DNA of 57,062 bases from Sphaeroforma arctica JP610 (Eukaryota). Positions within the stretch are counted from its first letter, which is position 1; every line of letters begins with the position of its first letter. The DNA is taken from positions 75,722-132,783 of the forward strand of contig NW_014040463.1 in NCBI RefSeq assembly GCF_001186125.1, written 5' to 3'. Of the stretch, positions 10,249 to 56,607 are shown one piece after another. The notes beneath the pieces are model-generated. The model saw only the letters and a list, made by a program, of their open reading frames with translations. It did no database searches and had not been told where the DNA came from. The position numbers were made by a program, and so were the translations under genes.

Positions 10249-10268
10249 NNNNNNNNNNNNNNNNNNNN
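10249..10268. other. Assembly gap inside an (AT)n microsatellite
   Basis: 20 N bases flanked by (AT)n. Confidence 0.99.
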
Positions 10269-38150: not shown

Positions 38151-38384
38151 TTAGGCCTACTGATTTTCTTCAATCTCTATTATCCTTCAGATCTATCGCT
38201 GTGCAGGGCCAAAATATGAATAATACGTCGATTCCAAAATTTCATATTTCCAATATTTTCACATTATATGCTAAATATTCTCATATCTCTATATTCTCAT
38301 AATATGACCGCGATGGGCGACACCAAATTTGTCTCATAATCCTTACTCATTTTTATGAGTTTCCAGGTTTGCTCTGTTGACGCT

Positions 38385-38471
38385 TTAACGCTTGTTTTGC
38401 TGTACTTTTCTACTCTGCTAGATAAATAATTTCATGGGAAAATTCGGTCTGAAAATGAAACTGCTTCGAGA
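38385..38471. repeat. Satellite-like ~176-bp repeat, left part of the unit split by the LTR element
   Basis: ..gaaaattcggtctgaaaatgaaactgcttcgaga matches the uninterrupted copy near 56517-56540. Confidence 0.85.
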
Positions 38472-38714
38472 TGTAGTAAGTCGTAAAGATAACTGTACCT
38501 CAATGTACTCCACTCGTACAAGGGGAGGCGTTGTTCATTTATTGAACTATTCCTTACACTATATTTTGATCATGTGTTTTCCTACTCAGATTTACTCTGA
38601 ACGGATAAACCCAGTTTCAAAATATAGTCTCTAAGCCCCTAATACTAATTAAACCCTAGTACTAAGTAAACCCTAATCCCCAAATAAACCCTGTCCAGGG
38701 ACCTCCTGACTACA
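38472..38714 (-). repeat. 3' LTR (243 bp)
   Basis: TG...CA bounded; 38581-38714 matches 46651-46783 with about 7 differences. Confidence 0.85.
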
Positions 38715-38722
38715 ACCCCCCC
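38715..38722 (-). other. Polypurine tract
   Basis: GGGGGGG-T immediately before the TGTAGT start of the 3' LTR on the minus strand. Confidence 0.75.
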
Positions 38723-38911
38723 AAGCTGAAGCACAATTTGTGGGCCAGCTTTAAAAATTCGAAGGAGTATCATGAACAGGTTAGTGTGCTGGCATTTATC
38801 CTCAAATAGCTAGAGAGCTCGGTTATTTATTCACCACTCGCGCTGGTGACTAAACATTATGTACATATAACTAACCTAATATATGTATATCTATAAACAA
38901 CTGGATGCTAT

Positions 38912-40200
38912 TTACAACTGGTCACTGCGACGTTTCCTGGCTCGTGTCTGTGTATCCTTATGATAAGCTACAATGTCATTCGCATCGTCAAAAGCATCGG
39001 CTGTTTCCCATGTTGGCACTCCCTCACGCCAACGTACAAGGTATTCCAGCTTCCCCGTATCATCGTTCGTCCGATGTTTGGTAATGTGACGGGATGCTGC
39101 GCCACCTTCATGCCACAGATCATCGTGCAATGAAGAGTCTGTACTGCGGTGGACCAACCGTTGTAACTCTACGCGAATCGGTTTCCCTTTAAACTCCTGG
39201 GGGGTGAACCCATCTCTATGTGTGAGATCATAGCCCTGACCGTTGCGACGTTTGACTACATACGGGCCAAACAGTGGGCACATAGTTTTGGAAGTGCGTC
39301 CCTCCGACTTCACCATTACTACATCACCTTCCTCGAAGTGAACCAAATCATGAGCATGTGGACGGTCAAATATATTCGTTAACTTGTCCGTATATGTCGT
39401 AGTGATCTTATGCAACGTAGACAAAATCGTATCCTGCAACTGGTCCAGCCGTTGTGCCCACGTGTCATTGGTCACGGGTTGTTGCTCGGGAACATCGTGG
39501 GTAAAATCCGCAAGCGGAACATGACGGCGGCCGAAATATAGGCGCTTTTGTGTCGTCGGGAGATACGCAAATTCTGGTAAAGCATGGTAAAAGGTAGCCG
39601 TTCGTCCCATGCCTGAGGTACTGCCTCACAGTAGATGCGTATAGAGCGTGTTATCTATTTGTGTCAACGATCTGTTGCGCCCAGTACTTGCGGTCTGTAT
39701 GGTGGTGAGACCTTATGGAGTATACCCACTTCTTTGACAATAAGAGCTACCATGTTATTAGTGAACTCCGTCCCCATGTCGGTATGCAGCTTGCGTGGGA
39801 ATCCATGTTCACCGAAGATGGCCAGTAACATTTGAGCGGTTGTTTCCTTAGTCTTATCGGGTGTGGCGCGTAATATCGAATTTCCGGATGCGACGTCTAA
39901 CATGTGTAAAACAAATTTATTCTGTCGGGAGGATGTCACCGCCATTGAGATATAGTCCACCTGGATATGGTCCCATGGGGACTTCGCATCAATACTCATC
40001 ATCGGATAGAACCCTTTACGCAAGGTGTCTTGGCCCAAACACTGACCACATTGCCGTTTGATTTCAGTAGCTAGTTCTAACGCCCCCGGCCAGACATGTC
40101 CGTTCCGTTGCAACTGCTGGACAGTATCGGCGGCACTGTGATGGCCTTGCTCATGATGCGCCTGTGTAAGTTGTGTCCGCCGTTGTTGTTCCATCGGAGT
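38912..40200 (-). pseudogene. DDE integrase with HHCC zinc finger, GPY/F motif and C-terminal chromodomain
   Basis: HEQGH...CGQC, WDHIQVDYI, LHTDMGTEF, PYRPQVLGATDR, LFGPYVV, ITKHR...LEYLVRWREGVPTWET; stop and frameshift near 39540-39665. Confidence 0.93.
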
Positions 40201-40369
40201 GGCATTCACGAACGCTGGTTGTGCCGCTTCACTACTCAACGCAACGGAAATCTCCCGCGCAGAGTCCAAACATTGATGGTGTGGTGTGTGACGAGGCTCG
40301 GCGTATCCTAACCGTTGGGTGAAGCTCTCTGCTAGTTGGAATCCCGACGGTGGGCCCACTCGTGCCACC

Positions 40370-40755
40370 CCCGTGTGGCCCATGGAGGGTTCCCGCAAGC
40401 ATACTTCGCATATTTCCGAAATGTATGCGGGGTTCGGGGTACTACCACAGGCTCGGCTTCCAGTAATGATTTAAAGAGGTCGAACCATGGTGCTCGAGGG
40501 GTCCAAGGTAGGCATACCGTTGCCGTGGCTCCATCTGTTTTGATCTTCCGTAGCATGCGGTGTATCAGTTTCCATGGCGTGTTCATCCATCCATCGACCA
40601 GCGCCCAGTCATGGTCAAACGCCCCATTGCGGTCATTCTTAGTTCAGAACCTGGGCAGCTGAGCGCTGTGAGGTGCTGCGAATACGTCTATATTGTTATG
40701 GCCAAAGATAAGTTGAGTCTGTTCAAAATAGCTGGTAAATAGTTGCCAGTAGTCT
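40370..40755 (-). pseudogene. Dam-like DNA N6-adenine methyltransferase domain (DIRS-MT/phage Dam type) within Pol
   Basis: One frame with a single TGA: DYWQLFTSYFEQTQLIFGHNNIDVFAAPHSAQLPRF*TKNDRNGAFDHDWALVDGWMNTPWKLIHRMLRKIKTDGATATVCLPWTPRAPWFDLFKSLL. Confidence 0.88.
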
Positions 40756-40799
40756 GCATACAGCACCTCTGGTACATCCGTCTCCGCCGTTCCTTCATG

Positions 40800-42880
40800 T
40801 ATCCGACTGAGCATGCCCGGCAGTACGTTCTTCTCCCCCGGTATATGCGAAATAGTAAAATTAAAAGGCGCTATGATATGATGCCTACGTTGTAACATAG
40901 GGCTAAGTTTCAGTTGGGTGTTCATATATGCTAAGCCTTGTGGTCCGTAAACACCGCGAAGCGTTGTTCCTCGAGGTAGTCGCGGAAGTGTGTCAACCCA
41001 TAAACGAACGCCAGGAGTTCCTTCATCGGCGGTGCATAGTTCTGCTGAGCGTAATTGAGGGTCTTACTGAAGAACATGGGGTAGTGTTTTGTGCCCTCCA
41101 CCCACTGAAATAGCGCTCCCCCTAGTCCGTAGTCACAAGCGTCCGTCTCGAGGTTGAGTGGGACGTTATCTACTGGGAAGTGTAATGCTACTACGTTCAC
41201 TATCGCATCCTTCATCGCTTGCCAAGCGTCCGCACGGCGTCGCTCCCACCTGTCTCCTATCAGTTCGTTTGGTTTGAGCTTACAGAATTCACGTAGTGGC
41301 GCCACCACGTGTGTAAAATCGGGTAGGTGCTCGTGCAAGAAATTAGCCAGGCCCAACGCTGAGGCAATGTCCTTGTACCGCTGGGGTGTTGGCCAGTCCA
41401 GAAGTTTGGCCTGTTTCTCAAAGTCGACATCAATCCCCTTCGCCAAGACTTTCTTGCCCAGTATCGTAACTTCCGCAATTGCGAAATGACACTTGGCCGG
41501 ATTCAGTTGGAAGCTATGGTATGTCAGTCTCTTGATCACCTCCTTCACTGTAGCCACGTGTTCCTCGTAATCGTCGCTGGCTATTACTATGTCGTCGATG
41601 TAGTGGTGGACTGGCAAACCATCGAGTATCGTACTAAGTGTTCGTTGAAATTGCTGTGTCAGCACGTGCAAACCGAATGGTGCCGATGTGAACGAGTACT
41701 GGTATCTGTCGTGTATGAAGCTGAACAGATATCTAGAGTCGGGATATATTGGGAGTCTATGATATGCTGCCGATATGTCGAGTGTAGTATAGTACTTCCT
41801 ACTTTTTAATCTAGAAATGACCTCATTCACTTTCAGTATCAAGAACTGGTCTCCTGGTCTCAGTGCGTGACCGCTCGCATATCTAGGCAGACGCGTACCT
41901 TCTTAACGTTGCCCTCACTGTCGAATGTCGGAACCGCTAGAAGTGGTAGAGTCGGGATGTATTGGGAGTCTATGATATGCTGCCGATATGTCGAGTGTAG
42001 TATAGTACTTCCTGCTTTATACTCTAGAAATGGCCTCATTCACTTTCGGTATCAAGAACTGGTCTCCTGGTCTCAGTGCGTTGACCGCTCGCATATCTAG
42101 GCAGACGCGTACCTTCTTAACGTTGCCCTCACTGTCGAATGTCGGAACCGCTAGAAGTGGAAGATTATCCGTCGTCGGTCGTACGCTTCGTGATCACCAA
42201 GTCTTTTATCCATTTCTGTACTTGTTCGTCGACGTACGGAAGCCATCGTGTTGACCTTTTCATGCTCATTGCTTGCTCGCGGGTTATTGGTATCGCCACC
42301 TCACTCTCCTCTAAGCGACAACGTGCATTGTCCTCAATAGCGACATTCGTTTCTAAAACTGTGGCAAGTCGTGCCCGCACTCCGTCTGGTTCGGTAATGT
42401 CGGGGGCCTGGCGGCGAGCCACTTGCTTGAGAAGGTCGTCGAGATCTGTTGGGTCGATAGGTATCAACGGTGATTGTATCCCTCCCAGGTATATCCTATG
42501 TTAGGCACCATATCGAACCCAAGTATGATATTGATGCCGTCGGGTAGATTCTTTAGTTCAAACGACCCGTTGATAATTCCGGAACCATAGCGTATCGGTA
42601 GTACCTCTATTGTTCCCAGCCGAGGAGTACGGGCTGCCTTGTCTGCTAAGCATATGAACGAACCGGTTGGTGCTGGTGTGATTGGTCGTCCTAAAAGGTC
42701 TGCGGATGACCGAGCAATGCAGCTACGGTTGGCACCTGTGTCCACCATCGCACGGAATGTACGCCCATTCACTTGCAGTTGGATGTAGACACGGTTATCG
42801 GAAGACAGCAGTGGGTCTTGGATCGCCATTGCTGCCTGCCATATATGTGTCAGCGTAAGTGCTACATCATCGTCGGTCAC
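40800..42880 (-). pseudogene. Pol: aspartic protease, reverse transcriptase and RNase H (frameshifted)
   Basis: AMVDTGA; LDISAAYHRL, APFGL, YIDDIVI; LETDACDYGLGGAL, ELLAFVYGL, FTDHKA, HIPGEKNVLPGMLSR. Confidence 0.96.
41734..42160. repeat. 213/214-bp tandem duplication disrupting RT
   Basis: 41734-41946 repeated at 41947-42160 with several substitutions and a 1-bp indel. Confidence 0.93.
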
Positions 42881-42889
42881 CCTGACGTC

Positions 42890-45095
42890 TCAGGGTTGCT
42901 CCGGGAACGGGGTCCATGACGACTGTGGTGTAGTCGGATAGGAATCGTCGCCTTGTCCAGCTTCCTCCGTCAAGATCGAATGTATATGTATCTCTGTGGC
43001 AGACTGGGTGTCGTTCCGGGGGACGTCCTCTTGTGTGACCACATTAACCTGTGGTGTGGACGTGTTTGTCGTTGGCTGCCTGTTGGAAAACTGCGACTGG
43101 TGGCGTTCTTTCCCTTGCGGTAGCGTTGTACGTTGCGACGACTGTATGTCTCTGCTGTGAATATTGGTATCTGACGATCGCGATCTATTGTCCTGCACCC
43201 CTGATTGTGCCGCCCTGTAATGGTGACACCGTGGTATGTGTCGGAGGCCTGGAGGTGCTTGCGCCCGGCAGCCGTTACATGTGGTTGCTGTAGCCGTCGC
43301 TGTTGGCCGTTGTTGCCACTGTTGGTGTTGACGTTGACCTATATGGGGGCTGGGTCGACCTGTTGCCTCACTTCTGCCTGTGTTCCCATTGTGACCACGA
43401 CGATTCGTTAGACTTTGTGTGGAACGTATCTGTGCCTCTTGGATATCCGGGTTCAGTAGCTGTAGTAACTCGTGGGTTTCCATCAGTTGCCATTTAGGGT
43501 GCAACTGCAAGGTACGTTCATATGTACGCGAGCCAAGAGTATCCTCCAAGAGTTGAACGATGCAGTAAGTTCTGCTTGAACTCGGCATCTGTTTGACAAC
43601 GCTCATGTGCTCGACGGTGCTTATCCATTAGATAAGTCATCTGTTCCATTACTGGGACGTTGCTGATCTTGAGATGGCCCTTCGCTAGCTTACGAAAGGT
43701 CGGGTCGACCGTCGCCTGAGTCTCATGTGAACAAACTTGCGTAATCTGCAACTCGGGAGTCCACGCCACTAGACGTTGATGATTGGATTTAATATATTCA
43801 AGTGTGTATTGTTCAGCTTTGAAATGACTCAACACTTTGTAGAACCCCAACCCTGATATCTGTGCGTTCTTAAGGGCCTCTCGTAAAGCCCCTTTTGTAT
43901 CGCGCTCCATGATGTTGCTAAGGTTGTATCTGTTAGAAGACCATTCAAGCCAGCTACGAGGTTCTCGTGGCTCCTGTTTGTTCGTTGGACGAGAATCATG
44001 CTTTGCCCGTAGTGTCTCGAGCATGCCTCGTAATGCCTCTGCACGTGGTAAGCTATTAGCCTCAACCGCACTACATAGTTCTTCCGATAGTTTAAACATT
44101 CGTGCGTGTAAAGCCTGACGATCGGCTGCTATACTTTCCGGTGTTGGGGGTGTATACTGCTGGTCGAGTCTTCTACGCTTATCTGCCGATACTGATTGAC
44201 TCGACGGAGTAAGTTCAAGCATCCGTTGTGCCGGTAGCATGTGGCTGAGCGTCTCTTGCTCGAATTGGCGACCTTGTCGTCGTGTGTGCAACGATGCCTC
44301 CATGTTATCGCGACGGTTATCCAATGCTTCTCTACCATGAGGGTTCTCCTGAGCCCGGTGTTGTTCTTGTACAAAGTCATGTAGCGATACTTTGTCCTGC
44401 GGCGCCTCACTTCCCTCCTGGTCCGACGATGTATAACCTAATCCCCGTCGCGACTGGTCTGCCCCTCGGATGCGAAACTTTAAGTTGTCGGATGTCTGAA
44501 GTGTGGTAGATCGTCGTAGGCGCTGTAGACGTCGGTCATACTTCTCTAACAAAGATTGTTGACGGCGGAGGAGACTTGTCAGCTGTTCTGGAGTGTCGTT
44601 CTCTCGATCTCAGTTCTGTCTCGTTCCTCTGGGACGATTACGATGACGTCTGCCCGTTGTGTTGTTTACACCCACTCTCACTGTCGCCGTAGCCTGCAGA
44701 TGGTTCTGTGTTGCCAAACGTGCGGCTCCCATTGCCTCGGGGGTCCCCAACCCCTGTTCCGTGAAGTCTACATCACTAGGTGTAGTAATTCTCTCAGTAC
44801 GATTCTGTTGTGCCATCAATGTACGTTGAAGTACCGACTGATTATTCCGGTGTTCTTAGGTTGTTCGGACGTCCTCCGTCCAGAGCTATTCGTTCTTGGT
44901 GCTGTCGTCTACGTCCGCGCTGATGAATGTTCTCGCGTTCGCGCTGCTCCGGGGGGAGCTGCTGCTGTCGACGGCTTTGTCATGTGTTGGCCATACTCAA
45001 TCGTAGCTTATTGTTTTATTTTTGCGATAAACAATGTGATGTTGGGGGACTTCTTCTTTTGTCTTAATACTCGACGTCCCCATGATCCCATCTTC
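42890..45095 (-). pseudogene. gag-position ORFs (344 aa, 238 aa and upstream fragments)
   Basis: Long ORFs directly upstream of the protease; atypical Cys/His cluster CNGC...HIPRC; assigned by position only. Confidence 0.65.
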
Positions 45096-46650
45096 TAAGT
45101 TATGTGATCACACAACCCATCTCATTCATGTGATATATTCTTGTACCGCGGCCTTATTGCTTCGATGTTGTTCGTCTTGATCGGTCTTGCTCCTTGTCTG
45201 CCCCAATTATCGTAACGAGTACTCTTCACTCTTGTAGATGCCCCGGACTCACGACTCACGTGCGCTTACTCCCTTGATGTGGCTCCGTACTCTCTCCATG
45301 ACTACTCCATCTCACTACTGCGCTTGTTTTTACTCTCTTAAACCGTACCTCCTTACGCATCTCTAGCCTATCCGCAATCACGGTGGTAGACTGCGCTTCT
45401 ACCCCGTTTGACGAACCCTCATTCGCTTCTCACACGCAAGACTCGTAATCTCCTCAGAATCTCTGGGTGTTCCCCGCACACAATGTCACTACACCACAAA
45501 CATTTTCACTCTCACTAACACATATCTTACTCACCGTTTTACTTCTCCTGTGTCAGCATTTCTCCTACACGTACTTATGTCCTAATGTGTTCGTCTGTAA
45601 ACTCTATGAACCTTTCATGCGCATGTGCAACCTTCGATGCGCTAGCATCTAATATCCTGTATAGTGTGTAGTGTGTGTCCTAAGACTTTATCTCCGGTGT
45701 ACTTGACTATGTTCTCTCCTATTTATCTACTTCTGTTAGCGTGTGCACAAAGTCTATCCTTTTGCTATGTTGGCTTCCTGTATCATGTGATGTGTGGTTG
45801 TGTGTATCCAGAGCCCTATTTGTTCTTCTTGTGTCCCTTAACCTCTCATGCCTTACCTAATGTCCTTACTTCTAACTCCTCGTTTCCACTTAACAAGTTT
45901 AGACAGCACTTTCTATACACAGGTCTACGTAGTCAACACTAAGAACAACCTTCACTGTCACACTAGTGCGTGTATCCTCTTTACGTACCTTGTCGATGTT
46001 CCTATTGCTTCCCAACTGGGTGCAGTTTTCAACTAAAGACACCTACCTAAAAAATTTCTGCACTCTTCTTTTGTCGCTGTTTACGTCCTGCTGATGTATC
46101 GCCGTCCAATCCGGTGTATAACCAAATCGATGCGATGGAATTGACCTTAGTGTCCATGTCGATGTTGGTGTTGGTCTCTTTTGATCTTGGCCCAACCCTT
46201 CCTATCTCCTAATTCTATTAGTTCCGGGTGTCGTTTCCAGTGGAACCTTCCCTTCAGACTTCCTCTATTTGCTTTCTGGTGACACCACCCTAACATTCAA
46301 TCGGGCGGGATGACTGCGATTGTATAACATCTGTCTACGATTATGTAGTTCCTTTCGTCTTGTGGTTCTCTCAATTTCCTGAGTTCTCCTAACTTCTTCT
46401 GGTTCTGATGCACTGCTTTCGCTTGTTAACGGTGCTGGCATACTGTCACTAGTGTCACTGCTTACGAAACCACTGTCTGTACCGTCTTCTCTTCGCAATT
46501 ATATTCCATGGGACGCCATTTCCGTGGTCGATGTCGATGTTTGAGTAATCTCTTTCCTCCCTTTTCTAATATAAAATTTGATTTTGGGCCCCCGCTAGTA
46601 TCTATTCCTCTTCAGTATATGTTCAATAATGTCCAACCTATAAGTAAGCT

Positions 46651-46783
46651 CCTACTCGAATTTACTCTGAACGGATAAACCCAGTTTCAAAATATAGTCT
46701 CTAAACCCCTAATACTAAATAAACCTTAATACTAGTAAACCCTAATCCCCAAATAAACCCTGTCCAGGGACCTCCTGACTACA
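46651..46783 (-). repeat. 5' LTR, only the outer 133 bp clearly recognisable
   Basis: Matches 38581-38714; ends ACTACA followed by the GAGA TSD. Confidence 0.85.
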
Positions 46784-47100
46784 GAGAATATGGCATGGCA
46801 TAAGTACATCGCCCCTATTGTATCTTTAGGTAGTATCGGAGCAACGTCTGCTGGAAGGAATAAGCTCCGCTGATACTTTACCGCTTGTTTTTATGTATTT
46901 TTCTACTTTGCTAGATAATCTGTTTTTGTGAATACTCAATCTGAAAATGGAACTGTTTCGATTACATGGTATGCCATAAGTACAGCACCCTTAGTTGGTC
47001 TTTAGATAGTATCAAAGCAACGTCTACTCGAAGGAATAACCTCCGTTGATGATCTAATGTTTTTTTCTGAATTCTTCTAATTTGCTAGACAATTGGATTC
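46784..47100. repeat. Satellite-like repeat, ~176-bp period, about 2 diverged tandem units
   Basis: taagtaca at 46801 and 46977; shared gcaacgtct.ct.gaaggaataa and tttgctaga blocks. Confidence 0.85.
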
Positions 47101-49678: not shown

Positions 49679-52049
49679 CGCCTGTGACTGTACTTATGGC
49701 ATCGCCCATACCAATAGCACCTGTTGTACACACACAACCACTTCTAAAACACACAAGATTACACACAGGATTTACACACAAGCCAAAACTAGTACCTATG
49801 AAATGATGTATAGCTGAAGTATGTGGGGCGCTATCGAGCAATATTAAGAGTGTCAAACCACATAAGAAAGTATGCAAGGCGCTCAATGATGATCCGACTT
49901 TGTATGAGTTAAGACACAACAAATAAATTATTCACTAAATGAAGCGAAGGAAAAAACCGAAATTAAAACCGAAATCATGTAACGAAGAGAATGAAAACAA
50001 AATCATTAAACGAAGAGAATGAAAATAAAATCATGAAACGAAGCGTGAATTATATCACGCATACACTAATTATAAATAATAATTACACACATATATAAAC
50101 AATACAAATTACATATGTGCACATACCTGTTTTGTATCCACATTCACACTATGGCAGTTCGATTCATTATATACGATTGCCAAGCAAAACGCAAGGATAG
50201 CGTCTCCTTGCATAGGTGGCAACCGATTTGGGAGCCAGTTCTTATTGGTCGAGCAATACCACTGTTGGCGTAGCGCGTATGTGTTGGGCACTTCACAGAC
50301 TTGACTGACGTGAAAATCGATAGTAAGAATCGTCTAAGAATTAGACGAGGATGAATGGCATCGCTACACTTGCCACGAAGGAGCCGTAGCAAATACAGAA
50401 GACTATCTCGACCAGACAGACAAATGTAAACATACATTTATTCCCTACAACATATACTTGACACTATATGCACTGTCCTATATACACATCACTATATACT
50501 CACAAGTCCAGCTTCTTGGCCGATGCTGGGCCATCCGTCATTGCAGCAACTCTATCACTTGCCGCTGCCGGCTTAGTCGTTGTTTGTCAGTCAGCTATCC
50601 TCTCGTTGCTCGACTTCGGAATACTTCCAAGAGAACTATAGCCGACTAATATGGTTTTCCATTGCCAGTTCAGTGTATCCAGAACACTTGTGCTGATTGA
50701 CGTATCTTTATCGTCGCTATCTGCCCATGTGGTAAACGTTCTGTTGTATCGCGGGTGCACTATCATCCTTTGCGCTTCGACGCCCTTACTTCTTGCACAG
50801 GAGGTACGTGCTGGTAGTGGCGTTTGATACGTTAGATTGAATTTGCCAACTAATCTATCTTTATCTGCCCAACTACCACTGGGAACGATACTGACAGTTT
50901 GCAATGCCGGAGCTGTACTACTTGGGAAATAGACGATTCGTGAGAAGTGTTAGAGTGCGGTGTGGTAGACTATAAGTAAAGTGGAAATGTATCTAAAGAA
51001 TATGGTGCGTTCGAATAAATTTATTTATGATCTCACCCTCAGTTATATACTGATGGTGCTTATACTAGTGTTCAACCACTTGGGTTGGCTAGGGTAAAAG
51101 CTCATATGATCAGTATGAGAAACCTTTTGCAGAACACTTAAATACTCGGATATATTTTCTAGAAATAAATATATCATATTCTCTTTTACTACACTCAGTC
51201 TCGGACCTCGGCTCTCGGCTAGCCGGTGGCCCGTGTCCTATAAATAGAATTATCTGAGAAGAAGTTTCAAATCACTCTTACGTTCTCTCGGACTGACCCA
51301 CCTATACAATTTGAGAACAACTCCCAAATTACTCTCGGGCTGACGACGTAAACGTTATTAACGTATATAGAAATACGTCTACTTCTGTAGTCTCTCAATA
51401 AGATCAAGTCTGTGCCATACGTGCTCGCTATTAGTTGCCACCCTTCAGTTAATACGCCTGTAATCCCCTTCTTTTCAATGTATTGGGACGGAATGTCGCT
51501 CAACGATCTATACCCCATATGTGTAAATTGGTGGTTTTGAGTCTTAATTACGCGAAAACGAAACTATCAAACTGACAAAGGTATGTATCTTCATGGTAGC
51601 AATACTTTTTCAATATTCATCGAACACAGTGGTAGTATATAAGTTTATCCTTATACCAAAAAAAAATCATATTGTTCCACACTCGCACAAAACATCAACC
51701 AATGGAGTGTATTGCCACTGCTTCCAACGATGCAGAGCGCAAACAACTACGGAATGTACAATGTTGGAGGCACAAAGAATGCACCTCTCATCAACTTGTG
51801 TGACAATCAGACTGCAACAAGAAACAACGCACTACAACAGACTCACACTCAAGAATATACACAACTGATGGAGAGAGACCGGTTAGAAAAAGAACACAAC
51901 AAATATGAAGCCTGATGTGCATGTAGACATATATTATTTTACCCCAAATTAGAATAATAACACTATCTCTAATAACCCTTAAAAAAATACACCCAAAATT
52001 AAACAAATAAAAAATGAATTGGAGCGATCTCAGTTTAAAATTCCAGATG

Positions 52050-52450
52050 CGCCCTTATTTTATATTCAGGTAGTCTCAGAGCAACGTTCGCTCAAATGAA
52101 TAAGCTCCGTTGATACTTAAACGTTTATTTATCTGTATTTTTCTACTTTGCTAGATGAACGATTTCTTGGGGAAATTCTGTCATAACTTACGACTTGTTC
52201 TTTCAATTCTTTCAACAGTACTCTTCCAATTCAGAGTAGCTCTAAATATGTGTATAACTTGATACGTAAACGTTTATTTTTCTGTATTTTTCTACTTTGC
52301 AAGATGAACGATTTCTTGGGAAAATTCTGTCTGAAAATTAAACTGCTTCAAAAAGATGACATGGTATAGGTACAACGCCCTTATTTTATCTTAAATTAGT
52401 GTCAGAGTAACGTCTGCTCATAGGAATGAGCCCTGTTGACGCTTTTAGCT
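52050..52450. repeat. Satellite-like ~176-bp repeat copies with an internal rearrangement
   Basis: gcccttattttat..gagcaacgt..gaataagctccgttgatact..ttctactttgctagat..gggaaattctgtc, as at 46784-47100. Confidence 0.85.
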
Positions 52451-54349
52451 TATTAAGCAACCCAAAAAAGAATTGGAGCGATTGTAGTGCGCTAATACGA
52501 AATAAATTAGTGTACTAAGGTTTTCGGGAGGAAACCACTTTGCAATGATAAAAACCTCGTTTATTACACAGTTTACTATTCAAGTCGTTGACTTTCTCTG
52601 TACGAATTCTTCATTGTCTACGTAGACCCTATTAATACCATTTCAGTCCGTGAACCTTTGCAAGAATTCTTGTCTGCATCTTCTCAATGAATTTTATGTA
52701 TTTCATACAGATAGTCTTGTAAAACTCAAGTCAAACATCATCAAACATCATATATGCGAATACATGCCTTATACAAATCCCCTTCATTCTTAAATAGGGC
52801 ATATTATATTTATAGTCCAATATATATGCATTAACCATTCTGTTAGTCGTTATTAATCCACGACAATAGATTTTGATGGTGTCATGTTAAACATCAGTAC
52901 CACAACACTAGTAATCTCTATCATAGTTGTTTACTTGGTTTCACCTTGATGTAAACATCATAGTTGTGCTAATTTACACTTTTCAAGTATCCATATCCTA
53001 AAGTATATATTAAGATATTGTCAAAGCTATGTGATATGAATAACCTGTGTATGAACCAAGTCTTGTCATAACTTACGACTTGTTCTTTCAATTCTTTCAA
53101 CATTACTCTTCCAATTCAGAGTAGCTCTAAATATGCGTATAGCATACCGATCTTCGGTGTGCGCCCTACACGCCCCTCGATAGAGTGCTGCTTGTGCAAG
53201 CATCCAGCCTCTGCCGAAACATAACAGTTGCACACAAAAGACTGCTGTTGAACACAGCTAATACTTTGTAAACAGTGATTACAAATTACATCCAAATTAC
53301 ATCTACATAAGCACAGTGTTACATTGCATATACAGGTTGGTACCCTCTGAGCCCATTAAACAGCAGTTGACCTGTACTGTGATTGCAAGCGATAGAGTAA
53401 CTATCTACCATGTGATGATTATGTACAATCGATCTCAGTTTAGATTACAAATCCTAGAAGTCCTTTTAACTCATCGTGCATGCATAGTACTAAGTTTGGG
53501 TGACACTAACCATGTGTCAAACTGGCCAGTGTCTCAAGCAATCTTCACAACTTTGTAACTACAAGCCCCTGATTTGTCCCCCACATGGCGAAATGCATCT
53601 TACTTGCCTACACCATCATCATTCATACTTACCTTGTAGAGTAATGACTACGACAGTGGCTTTGAGAACAGTGATTTTAGTGATTCCAGTATGTCAGCGT
53701 TGCTTTCTGCGAGTCCAAGTGATGAGGATCAGTCCTTCGGTAGTCCATCTATATCTGACATGTCAACAGCTTCGCTAAATCAAAACCGCCATCATAATCG
53801 TCGTATGAGCATCCGGCATCAGAAATACATAATGCGTACGCAAGCCACCCTTGCACAACGGCCGATGTCTTATATGGGTGATCTCCAAGTTTACTACACT
53901 TAAGGTATGCGACATATGGGTTTTTTTCCTTCCTTTATATCTGTCCATGGTGACTTAACTGCTTATTTGTACATGCTGATTTCTCTTCGGTACTCTGCAT
54001 TCTTGCACCATTTACATAGTAAGTTATATCCTATGTCTAAGCATACCTGTTATTTGTATAGCATTACATATAACAAATTCATATATGATCACCATCTATG
54101 ACCACATCCATGTTCTCAGATGTACATTTGTTCATCTGTCTTGTGCGTAGAATCCCATCAAAACCCATCTGAACACACATCCTCAATTGTGTAGGTGATA
54201 CATTCGTTGTGAATATGAATTCTACTAGTTGTGGCGCCAGTAGATGTGACCTTGACAACTCTGGGACACGCAACAGATGTCATTTATCTGTACTAGATGA
54301 CTTGTCACACAACACCTAATATCGACTCCGCACTGATTGCATCCGTGTA

Positions 54350-56490
54350 GACCATTCCTTAGTAGCTTTCGAAGTTAATAAAACTCTTGCCAACCGCGCA
54401 CGTACCGCTAGCGGCCTTTGGGCAAATGGTGAATCCCGAAACAACTAATTAAGTGTCCCACCGTCTCCATCTCCGACTCTGTATGTTTTTCTGCATGAAA
54501 TTAGTCTATGTATGTGCGAAGTAGCCTTACTACTTTCCTTTTGTAGCCAAGTACATGCATTACGGGACCTTCATGTGCTGTGACCGTAGCTGGGTAATAC
54601 CACTTGGCCCGCAACTTATGACTACCTATGTCTTTCCAGAAACGAACTATCGTTCCCACCGGTAGTTGTGGGGTCTCAATTCTACCCCTGTCCGTATCCC
54701 TCTGCTGGGCTAATCTTTTACGTTAATCCAGTCTCACTGCTATCCTATCTCTTACCAGCGTGCTCAAACCAGTGTCATTCACAAGCATTTCACCAATTTT
54801 AACTTGTAAAGACATTCGTTGAGGTCCATCATATATCCTCCCAGTATGTAGGAAGTATGGTGAGAAGCCTGTCTGCGGCACAACTGCTGCATTGTATGCC
54901 AGGGCTGCCGCATACACTTTGTGCACCCAGTCATGGTAAGTTGAAGAGTCATTAAGACTCGCTGTCCACTCGGATAATTTGCGGATTGCTCATTCCGCTC
55001 TCCCATTTCTTACATGGTGCCCAGTTGTACTTAAATGTACATAGATGCCATTGTTCAAGGCAAACTGCTCAAATACCAAACTATCAAATTCGGTTCCTTT
55101 GTCAGCAGCTTTTCTTCTGGGTAGTCCCCATGAGAGTTTTTATTATCTCACGAATTTTATGATTCCCAGTGTATTCCGCAAAGTCGCCGTAAATGCACTA
55201 ATCCTTAGCAATTTGGACATTTCATTAACTAGAACCAATACCGAAGTTTCTCCCTTTGGGGCTTGAGGTAAGTCTACAAAGTCATTACTCCAATTTGCTG
55301 TTATTTGTATGGTTTGTTCCGGTTGCTGTAATAGTCCTAAAGCTTCTGGAGGAGGCCTCCCATATTGTTGATAAGGTGTCCACACTCTTCCTATCATTCT
55401 TATCTGCGCACGAAGTCCTTTCCACCCAAGCACGTCCTCTGTCAGATGCTCTAGTCTCTTCTGTGCCGCATGAGCATAAGTTACGTGCGAATATTGCAAT
55501 GCCTTTACCACTTGTGCTCCCGTCAGCGCTGTTCCCCATATTGTCCTAGAGGGGCACTGCATTAAGATAGGCCAGGGATCAACCTTTCCAGGTACTGCGA
55601 TCTGCTTGGGTCGTGAGACTCTTACGCCTTCTTGCATTAATTCTTTCTGCACAGCTTGCTCAGCTTGCCCCTTTTCGCCCAGCATTGTAGCCATTGGTGT
55701 CTTAGTTGCCTGATGCTCCACGTATCATTTCTCTGCGCGCGTAATGGATTGTTCCAACACCGATCGTTCCACGAACTGCACTGGCTCACATGCACCTATG
55801 AATTTCGCCGCCGCCTCCTGTGTCTTACCCACTCTCACATTTTTTTTTGGATTGACTAGCTACAATGGTTGTTTCTCTAGTTCTGGCGCTTCCTGAGACG
55901 CTTTCACCACTTCTTGGCGTTGCAATATCTCACAGTCATTCCATAAGTTTTTTTATTTGCTTGAACTTGCGTGGCCCAAGCCTACATATTATGGTTACAA
56001 AGGAAGGGGGTCCAGTTTCATCATGACCGTGCTTGTTGAATACTTAGTGTGTGGCCAGTAAGAGCAAGACAGAGTACACCACGCCTTCTCTGCTTGTGCC
56101 TTTTACAGTACCATCGACAACAATGTCCAGTGTGGGTTAAAGAACCAATTTATAGTAGGGTCGCCCCAGTGCATACAAAACACACCTCCTTCTAAGCTAG
56201 GCACACAGTAGAAAGGTAGCACTTGGTTACCTGGCAATGCGAATCCATCAGCGGGATGTGGCCCCCATAGTTTCTCAGCTCGCTTAAAGTACTGAGATGT
56301 CAACTGGTATTCTATTGTCGACGCTATACTAATCGATGGTTCTGAAAAATTAACTCGCAAATCCTTGTTTTCTCTTGATATCCGCATAATAGGATCTAGG
56401 GTAACACATAGCCGAGACATTACATCGGCCACTGGATTTTGATCTCCAGGTATGGGAATGATTTCTACCTCAAAGTCTCTGATCACATCA
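54350..56490 (-). mobile_element. 5'-truncated, heavily decayed second Ty3/Gypsy-type element: RNase H end, Dam-like MTase, integrase
   Basis: DFEVEIIPIPGDQNPVADVMSR (RNase H end); MTase motifs; HVTYAH (zinc-finger start), WSNDFVDLP, DKGTEFDS, AYNAAVVPQTGFSPYFLHTGR, KLRAKWYYP. Confidence 0.88.
55990..56312 (-). pseudogene. Dam-like N6-adenine methyltransferase domain of the second element
   Basis: EYQLTSQYFKRAEKLWGPHPADGFALPGNQVLPFYC...GVFCMHWGDPTINWFFNPHWTLLSMVL*KAQAEKAWCTLSCSYWPHTKY. Confidence 0.82.
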
Positions 56491-56505
56491 TAATATCAAC
56501 CAAAA

Positions 56506-56607
56506 TGATTTCTTGGGAAAATTCTGTCTGAAAATGGAGCTGCTTGGAGAATATGGCATGGCATAAGTACATCGCCCTTATTTTATCTTTATGTAGTATC
56601 GGAGCAA
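56506..56607. repeat. Satellite-like repeat fragment that shows the empty insertion site
   Basis: gaaaattctgtctgaaaatggagctgcttggagaatatggcatggcataagtacatcgccc spans the point where the LTR element interrupts the other copy. Confidence 0.88.

Follow-up and report, generated by a model that had tools for sequence, protein, structure and literature searches.

A dead retrotransposon fragment in Sphaeroforma arctica, probably of Ty3/Gypsy type, with a Dam-like methyltransferase domain between RNase H and integrase

The window analysed here, meaning the whole 57,062-nucleotide stretch of Sphaeroforma arctica DNA, carries on its minus strand a fragment, designated element 2, that is best explained as a dead Ty3/Gypsy-type LTR retrotransposon of which only the 3' half is left. 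Its RNase H tail, Dam-like methyltransferase (MT) domain and integrase share one frame. The fragment likely belongs to a Gypsy lineage other than that of element 1, a second retrotransposon located 8 kb away with the same LTR termini (TGTAGT...ACTACA), and this combined explanation is held with moderate confidence. The copy itself is dead: gag, protease, reverse transcriptase (RT) and most of RNase H are absent, 11 stops interrupt the frame, and the catalytic proline is gone, as are both cysteines of the zinc finger. Its architecture has already been described in a preprint as the DAM-LTR class, comprising Ty3/Gypsy-type elements whose Pol contains a Dam-like domain next to a DDE integrase (Fernandez-Moreno et al., bioRxiv 10.64898/2026.05.21.726589), and element 2 is one more, decayed example of the class as defined in the main text of that source.

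Extent and coding frame of element 2

The window consists of intron-rich eukaryotic DNA, whose host genes form singleton clusters and are presumably NOP58-, CHMP1- and NudC-like. An assembly gap of 20 N lies at 10249-10268. The features of the two elements, in window coordinates, are as follows.

56503..56607, strand unassigned: dispersed repeat truncating element 2, with 83-95% matches at 38424-38471, 46784-46844 and 52307-52410
56412..56492, minus strand: C-terminal tail of a Gypsy-type RNase H (21.7 bits with the LTR-type tail profile against 8.3 with the DIRS-type), with the 5' part of the element lost
56007..56312, minus strand: Dam-like adenine methyltransferase domain MT2, decayed (profile E=7e-16), with NPHW at 56138 replacing NPP(W/F/Y) and a stop at 56105
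55488..56006, minus strand: C-terminal part of the MT and linker, same frame, six stops; 157 aa separate the MT and integrase profile matches
54855..55487, minus strand: integrase, with a degenerate H2C2 zinc finger and DDE core (profile E=9e-14; Pfam rve, a weak match, E=0.017; atlas Integrase_H2C2 0.96)
54480..54854, minus strand: C-terminal (SH3/GPY-F-like) region of the integrase (post-core profile E=3e-5; chromodomain profile E>=0.7)
53564..53582, minus strand: polypurine-tract-like (PPT) stretch abutting the LTR candidate, seen in the sequence, with a layout as in the 3' LTR of element 1
52483..53563, minus strand: 3' LTR candidate of 1081 bp with termini TGTAGT...ACTACA, the far end of which splits a 13-mer found unbroken at 52016
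38472..46783, minus strand: element 1, a full-length decayed Gypsy (PR-RT-RH-MT(NTPW)-INT-chromo) with termini TGTAGT...ACTACA and a 4-bp target duplication, TCTC

Between 56492 and 54480, the minus-strand frame of element 2 has 671 codons, of which 11 are stops; the other two frames of this strand have 50 and 42 stops. The RNase H tail, the MT and the integrase therefore lie in a common frame. This frame runs without a frameshift through RNase H tail, MT, linker and integrase, in that order. The peptides quoted in a sequence-only reading of this DNA were found at the minus-strand places given there, from the start of the MT at 56312 through WFFNPHW (NPHW at 56138) and the linker into the integrase. 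That reading had placed the element at 54350..56490; the architecture within these limits stands, while the element itself reaches past them, to the end of the 3' LTR candidate at 52483.

The six-base terminal motifs of this LTR candidate are common in the window, with 19 and 26 occurrences, and its identification therefore rests on the coincidence of these termini with the PPT and with a repeat boundary. A second copy of the candidate was not found within the window, and the 5' LTR is absent. An AT-rich dispersed repeat (38371-38471, 46784-47093, 52050-52445 and 56503-56607) abuts element 1 at both ends and adjoins element 2 at both ends; it is possibly a preferred insertion target or the sign of a TE-rich pocket.

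No RT remains in element 2 for classification. As in Ty3/Gypsy elements, RNase H lies upstream of a DDE integrase within a single Pol frame. The D-x35-E triad of this integrase, counted on the translation, is formed by D 55283, D 55103 and E 54995, and the zinc finger retains its His residues. In nine frame translations (52400-56500 minus, 53500-56500 plus) no Pfam family other than rve was detected at E<=0.1. A tyrosine recombinase, which had been named, for intact relatives, as evidence that the integrase is a separate insertion, is not found in the frames scanned of this copy, where a DDE integrase stands in frame instead. Neither a chromodomain nor a PHD finger was detected after the integrase, and decay could mask a chromodomain. 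A Cys/His-rich remnant at 54120-54345 lies 3' of the integrase, split over two minus-strand frames and without a Pfam match in single frames; by eye, its Cys/His spacing resembles that of a PHD finger.

Dam-like domains were also noted in DIRS elements (PMC5890265). DIRS1-type elements resemble element 2 in that a homologous MT directly follows RNase H. They differ in having a tyrosine recombinase and an RNase H-MT linker of 3-13 aa (31 DIRS-like proteins in the sample used here), whereas element 2 has a DDE integrase, a 31-aa linker within the range of 14-93 aa found in 20 LTR-type proteins, a PPT and a TG...CA LTR end. The DIRS-type arrangement, in which an RNase H tail of DIRS type abuts the MT, is thus not that of element 2.

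The methyltransferase domain and its possible role

The RNase H tail and MT segments of the two elements are homologous (BLASTP E=2e-9; 34 of 147 residues identical, 23%), and no gap is needed to align their first 35 MT residues, in agreement with the gapless alignment claimed earlier. The MT cores reach a pairwise score of 95, compared with a shuffle mean of 27, and this score was attained in 0 of 5000 shuffles. Of the two protein comparisons that the sequence-only reading had proposed, the one between the MTs hence demonstrates homology; in the other, the integrases barely align pairwise (E=0.017). Similarity at the nucleotide level had been denied, and indeed the coding regions give no blastn match (word 7, E<=1e-3). 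Profiles of both domains, built without window sequences from phmmer relatives of the element 1 domain (MT1), were scanned over the whole window and matched only two MTs and two integrases.

Pfam recognises Dam in element 1 (E=8.5e-6) and returns 0 families for MT2 at E<=1. The best hit of MT2 in a PDB sequence search has E=0.32, the sequence atlas places the MT open reading frame in unnamed clusters only, and a word-index search of longer proteins with MT2, MT1 and the integrase core retrieved nothing, which counts as weak evidence. A structure model of MT2 (pLDDT 84) was guided by a 20-row alignment of relatives and accordingly displays the fold of the family rather than activity. Among 48,161 chains, this predicted fold is closest to T4 Dam (Z 8.3, rmsd 2.9, 100 aligned), PCIF1, or CAPAM (Z 7.9, rmsd 2.6, 103 aligned), and E. 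coli Dam (Z 7.0), yet the identity to these top matches is 8-15%. Foldseek returned nothing at E<=0.001; its best TM-score, 0.63-0.65 at E of about 1, belongs to PCIF1.

The degenerate motif NPHW is one base away from NPPW, as previously stated, the CAC codon being confirmed from the sequence. Its likely history is suggested by relatives. Contigs of public sequencing runs contain at least two diverged relatives of element 2. One, found in two of four runs, matches the MT core over 24 of 27 nt, a stretch so short that the joint calls for caution, and the zinc-finger region over 54 of 68 nt, in colinear order; the two regions are 767 nt apart, compared with 614 in element 2, and the difference of 51 codons preserves the frame. 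The other, present in all four runs, agrees with the MT core at 31 of 35 nt and then reads NPPW, by hand translation of a 30-nt loose end. Colinear MT and integrase in one relative and NPPW in another indicate that this family has retained the MT as a module, and the NPHW of the present copy is likely a product of its decay. A single-frame search with element 2 for related loci matched 31 stretches, none of them confirmed, and the family motif pattern occurred 0 times in metagenome and viral contigs.

A 441-bp (147-codon) unit at 56048-56488, covering the RNase H tail and MT core, is joined head to tail in contigs of three of the four runs. Its depth is about 1.8 times that of its neighbours in run X12, and it is single-copy in run X5. 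The unit likely represents an in-frame tandem duplication that is missing from this assembly.

In intact Gypsy elements, the protease processes the Pol polyprotein, which is packaged; RT reverse-transcribes the RNA, and the resulting cDNA is inserted by the DDE integrase. Intact members of the element 2 family would replicate as ordinary Gypsy elements in this manner. Following the model in the main text of the preprint, their MT would travel with Pol and deposit 6mA on the cDNA or on the RNA-DNA intermediate, and 6mA on new copies would recruit the AMT1 6mA system of the host, so that the copies stay transcribed. The same text reports more 6mA and more expression for DAM-LTR insertions in S. 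arctica and Abeoforma whisleri (bioRxiv 10.64898/2026.05.21.726589). On this model, the most likely role of the MT would be to seed 6mA on a new copy for AMT1 to keep its transcription on, with chances put at roughly even.

The MT domain may instead be real and retained without being a DNA methylase, its PCIF1-like fold serving to bind or modify element RNA, or to dock Pol. This alternative touches function only and is compatible with the anatomy proposed above; it is a plausible one, judged somewhat short of an even chance. In the fold search PCIF1 and T4 Dam match about equally well, PCIF1 leads in the Foldseek TM-score, and the catalytic motifs are altered in both copies of the window (NPHW and NTPW). 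In addition, Iyer et al. placed the DIRS1 methyltransferases in the PCIF1 clade as likely inactive (PMC4738411), and the E. coli methylation assay given in the preprint showed no gain of 6mA (bioRxiv 10.64898/2026.05.21.726589). Against this stand the raised 6mA on DAM-LTR insertions in that account, the retention of NPP(W/F/Y) in 99 of 152 MT rows, counted by regular expression, and the NPPW of the family relative.

One lineage or two

According to the main text of the preprint (bioRxiv 10.64898/2026.05.21.726589), DAM-LTRs occur in Sphaeroforma arctica, Abeoforma whisleri and Pirum gemmata, their ichthyosporean lineage lacks chromodomains, and the Dam domain was transferred from DIRS to Gypsy elements at least four times independently. 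Given such repeated captures, a common architecture alone is no proof of common capture. Element 2 resembles the DAM-LTRs in encoding an integrase and carrying a Dam-like domain within Pol, and differs from them as a dead fragment with NPHW that would escape the Pfam screen (E<1e-5) described there. It shares with the ichthyosporean lineage the domain order and the absence of a detected chromodomain, and differs from it in integrase signature and tree position.

Element 1, in turn, groups with proteins of S. arctica, A. whisleri and P. gemmata, and the best phmmer match of MT1 is Sphaeroforma arctica SARC_07150 (62%). In contrast to the chromodomain-free description in the preprint's main text, it ends with a divergent chromodomain (38912-39100; Pfam E=0.002, local profile E=5e-9), which eight relatives in its integrase clade also match at E<=0.004. 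Its catalytic MT motif is NTPW (40398-40410), and a later GNPPW corresponds to the conserved C-terminal PPW/TPW motif of relatives, not to the catalytic one. The start of its RT is duplicated (41734-42081; 135 nt, 96%, 213 nt apart).

The comparison sample came from a phmmer search with MT1, which gave 945 proteins at E<=1e-3; the best 150 of the 945 were used. Among these 150 relatives, 28 are single proteins with both an MT and a DDE integrase, the MT preceding the integrase in 25, and a motif of the RNase H tail lies ahead of the MT in 20 of these 25, among the matches listed. The order RT-RH-Dam-rve was confirmed by Pfam in many relatives, in a scan that was first limited to the best five families each for eight proteins, seven of which were rescanned in full. 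Other arrangements were also seen. P0047 and P0064 carry the Dam domain before RT, together with an endonuclease domain, and P0138 carries it after the integrase. In P0055 it lies upstream of a Copia-type RVT_2, a placement that the main text of the preprint does not mention.

MT trees were built from 150, 63 and 45 of the 152 rows, the last set being picked after the earlier trees, integrase trees excluded P0138 and P0059 (short match), and the concatenated tree had 25 rows. All are trees without DAM-less Gypsy references, so that captures are not countable against losses in them. Element 1 falls within a 16-row MT clade (98/92) with named Sphaeroforma, Abeoforma and Pirum proteins and within a 12-row integrase clade (98/92; 97/94 in the LG+G4 analysis). 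Element 2 lies outside the clade of element 1 in every best tree, whether of the MT, of the integrase or of both concatenated. The LG+G4 integrase trees group it with P0013 and P0110, or with the remaining one when either is dropped, and its integrase position is unresolved under the mixture model. The same two proteins are the only ones among the 28 relatives to share its pair of integrase signatures, GLLxxP and TGxSP(F/Y), and the G(Y/F)HP and HxSxP(F/Y) signatures of the element 1 clade are missing from element 2. The placement of MT2 depends on the method, being among DIRS-like MTs with FastTree and in a quick tree and near LTR-type MTs in a careful tree; in a quick MT tree search the constrained tree was better than the free one. 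In AU tests, sisterhood of the two elements is rejected by the integrase (p=0.008) and concatenated (p=0.041) data and not by the MT (p=0.19). Inclusion of element 2 inside the clade of element 1 is not rejected by any of them (p=0.10 for the integrase, 0.35 for the MT, 0.20 concatenated).

These results favour a separate lineage for element 2 without establishing it, as far as sequence comparison goes. The claim that the MT is an ancestral, retained module of a diversified clade and not a chance insertion is therefore borne out in part: the two MTs are homologues, the integrase of element 2 is part of the element that carries its MT, and the family of element 2 has kept this domain. A single MT-bearing ancestor of both elements is the part that the trees do not show, element 2 lying outside the clade in the best ones.

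Such an ancestor would mean that one Gypsy element captured the MT once and that element 2 branched off early within the ichthyosporean DAM-LTR clade, evolved fast and decayed, which appears rather doubtful. The two elements do share domain order, LTR termini and host, and the MT loop is short in both (37 and 35 residues, compared with mostly 40 in DIRS-like proteins). Element 2 is moreover the longest branch in every tree, where possible long-branch attraction was flagged; long branches are readily drawn away from the clade to which they belong, and this could explain its outside position, its inclusion not being rejected. On the other hand, no best tree places element 2 within the clade, sisterhood is rejected on integrase and concatenated data, the integrase signatures of the clade are missing, and repeated captures are reported in the preprint.

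That a DIRS pol end (RNase H-MT) lies by chance beside a separate Gypsy integrase is very improbable and largely refuted: MT2 does fall among DIRS-like MTs in two quick trees and has its highest MT identity in those sets with a DIRS-like protein (34-35%), but a single frame spans the MT-integrase junction, the RNase H tail and linker are of Gypsy type, no recombinase shows in the frames scanned, and a diverged relative keeps both domains colinear at a frame-preserving spacing.

Implications for DAM-LTR elements

Under the favoured explanation, a Ty3/Gypsy-type element of another lineage than element 1, element 2 is possibly an unreported second DAM-LTR lineage in its host. The main text of the preprint names one ichthyosporean lineage and does not mention a second, which its supplementary tables and trees may include, and a literature search found no further DAM-LTR paper. 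Tentatively, and with distinctly less than even confidence, the family of element 2 may represent a further independent capture of a Dam-like domain by a different Gypsy lineage. One ichthyosporean genome would then contain two DAM-LTR lineages of separate origin, in both of which the domain sits between RNase H and integrase. The family would comprise three or more diverged members, of which one keeps NPPW intact, and a PHD-like Cys/His finger may take the place of the chromodomain at its end.

If this separate capture is true, the convergence inside a single host would lend weight to the view that Dam-like domains are selected for in a genome marked by 6mA. It would also allow a within-genome comparison of two DAM-LTR lineages with DAM-less LTR elements, in a species for which the preprint presents a 6mA map.
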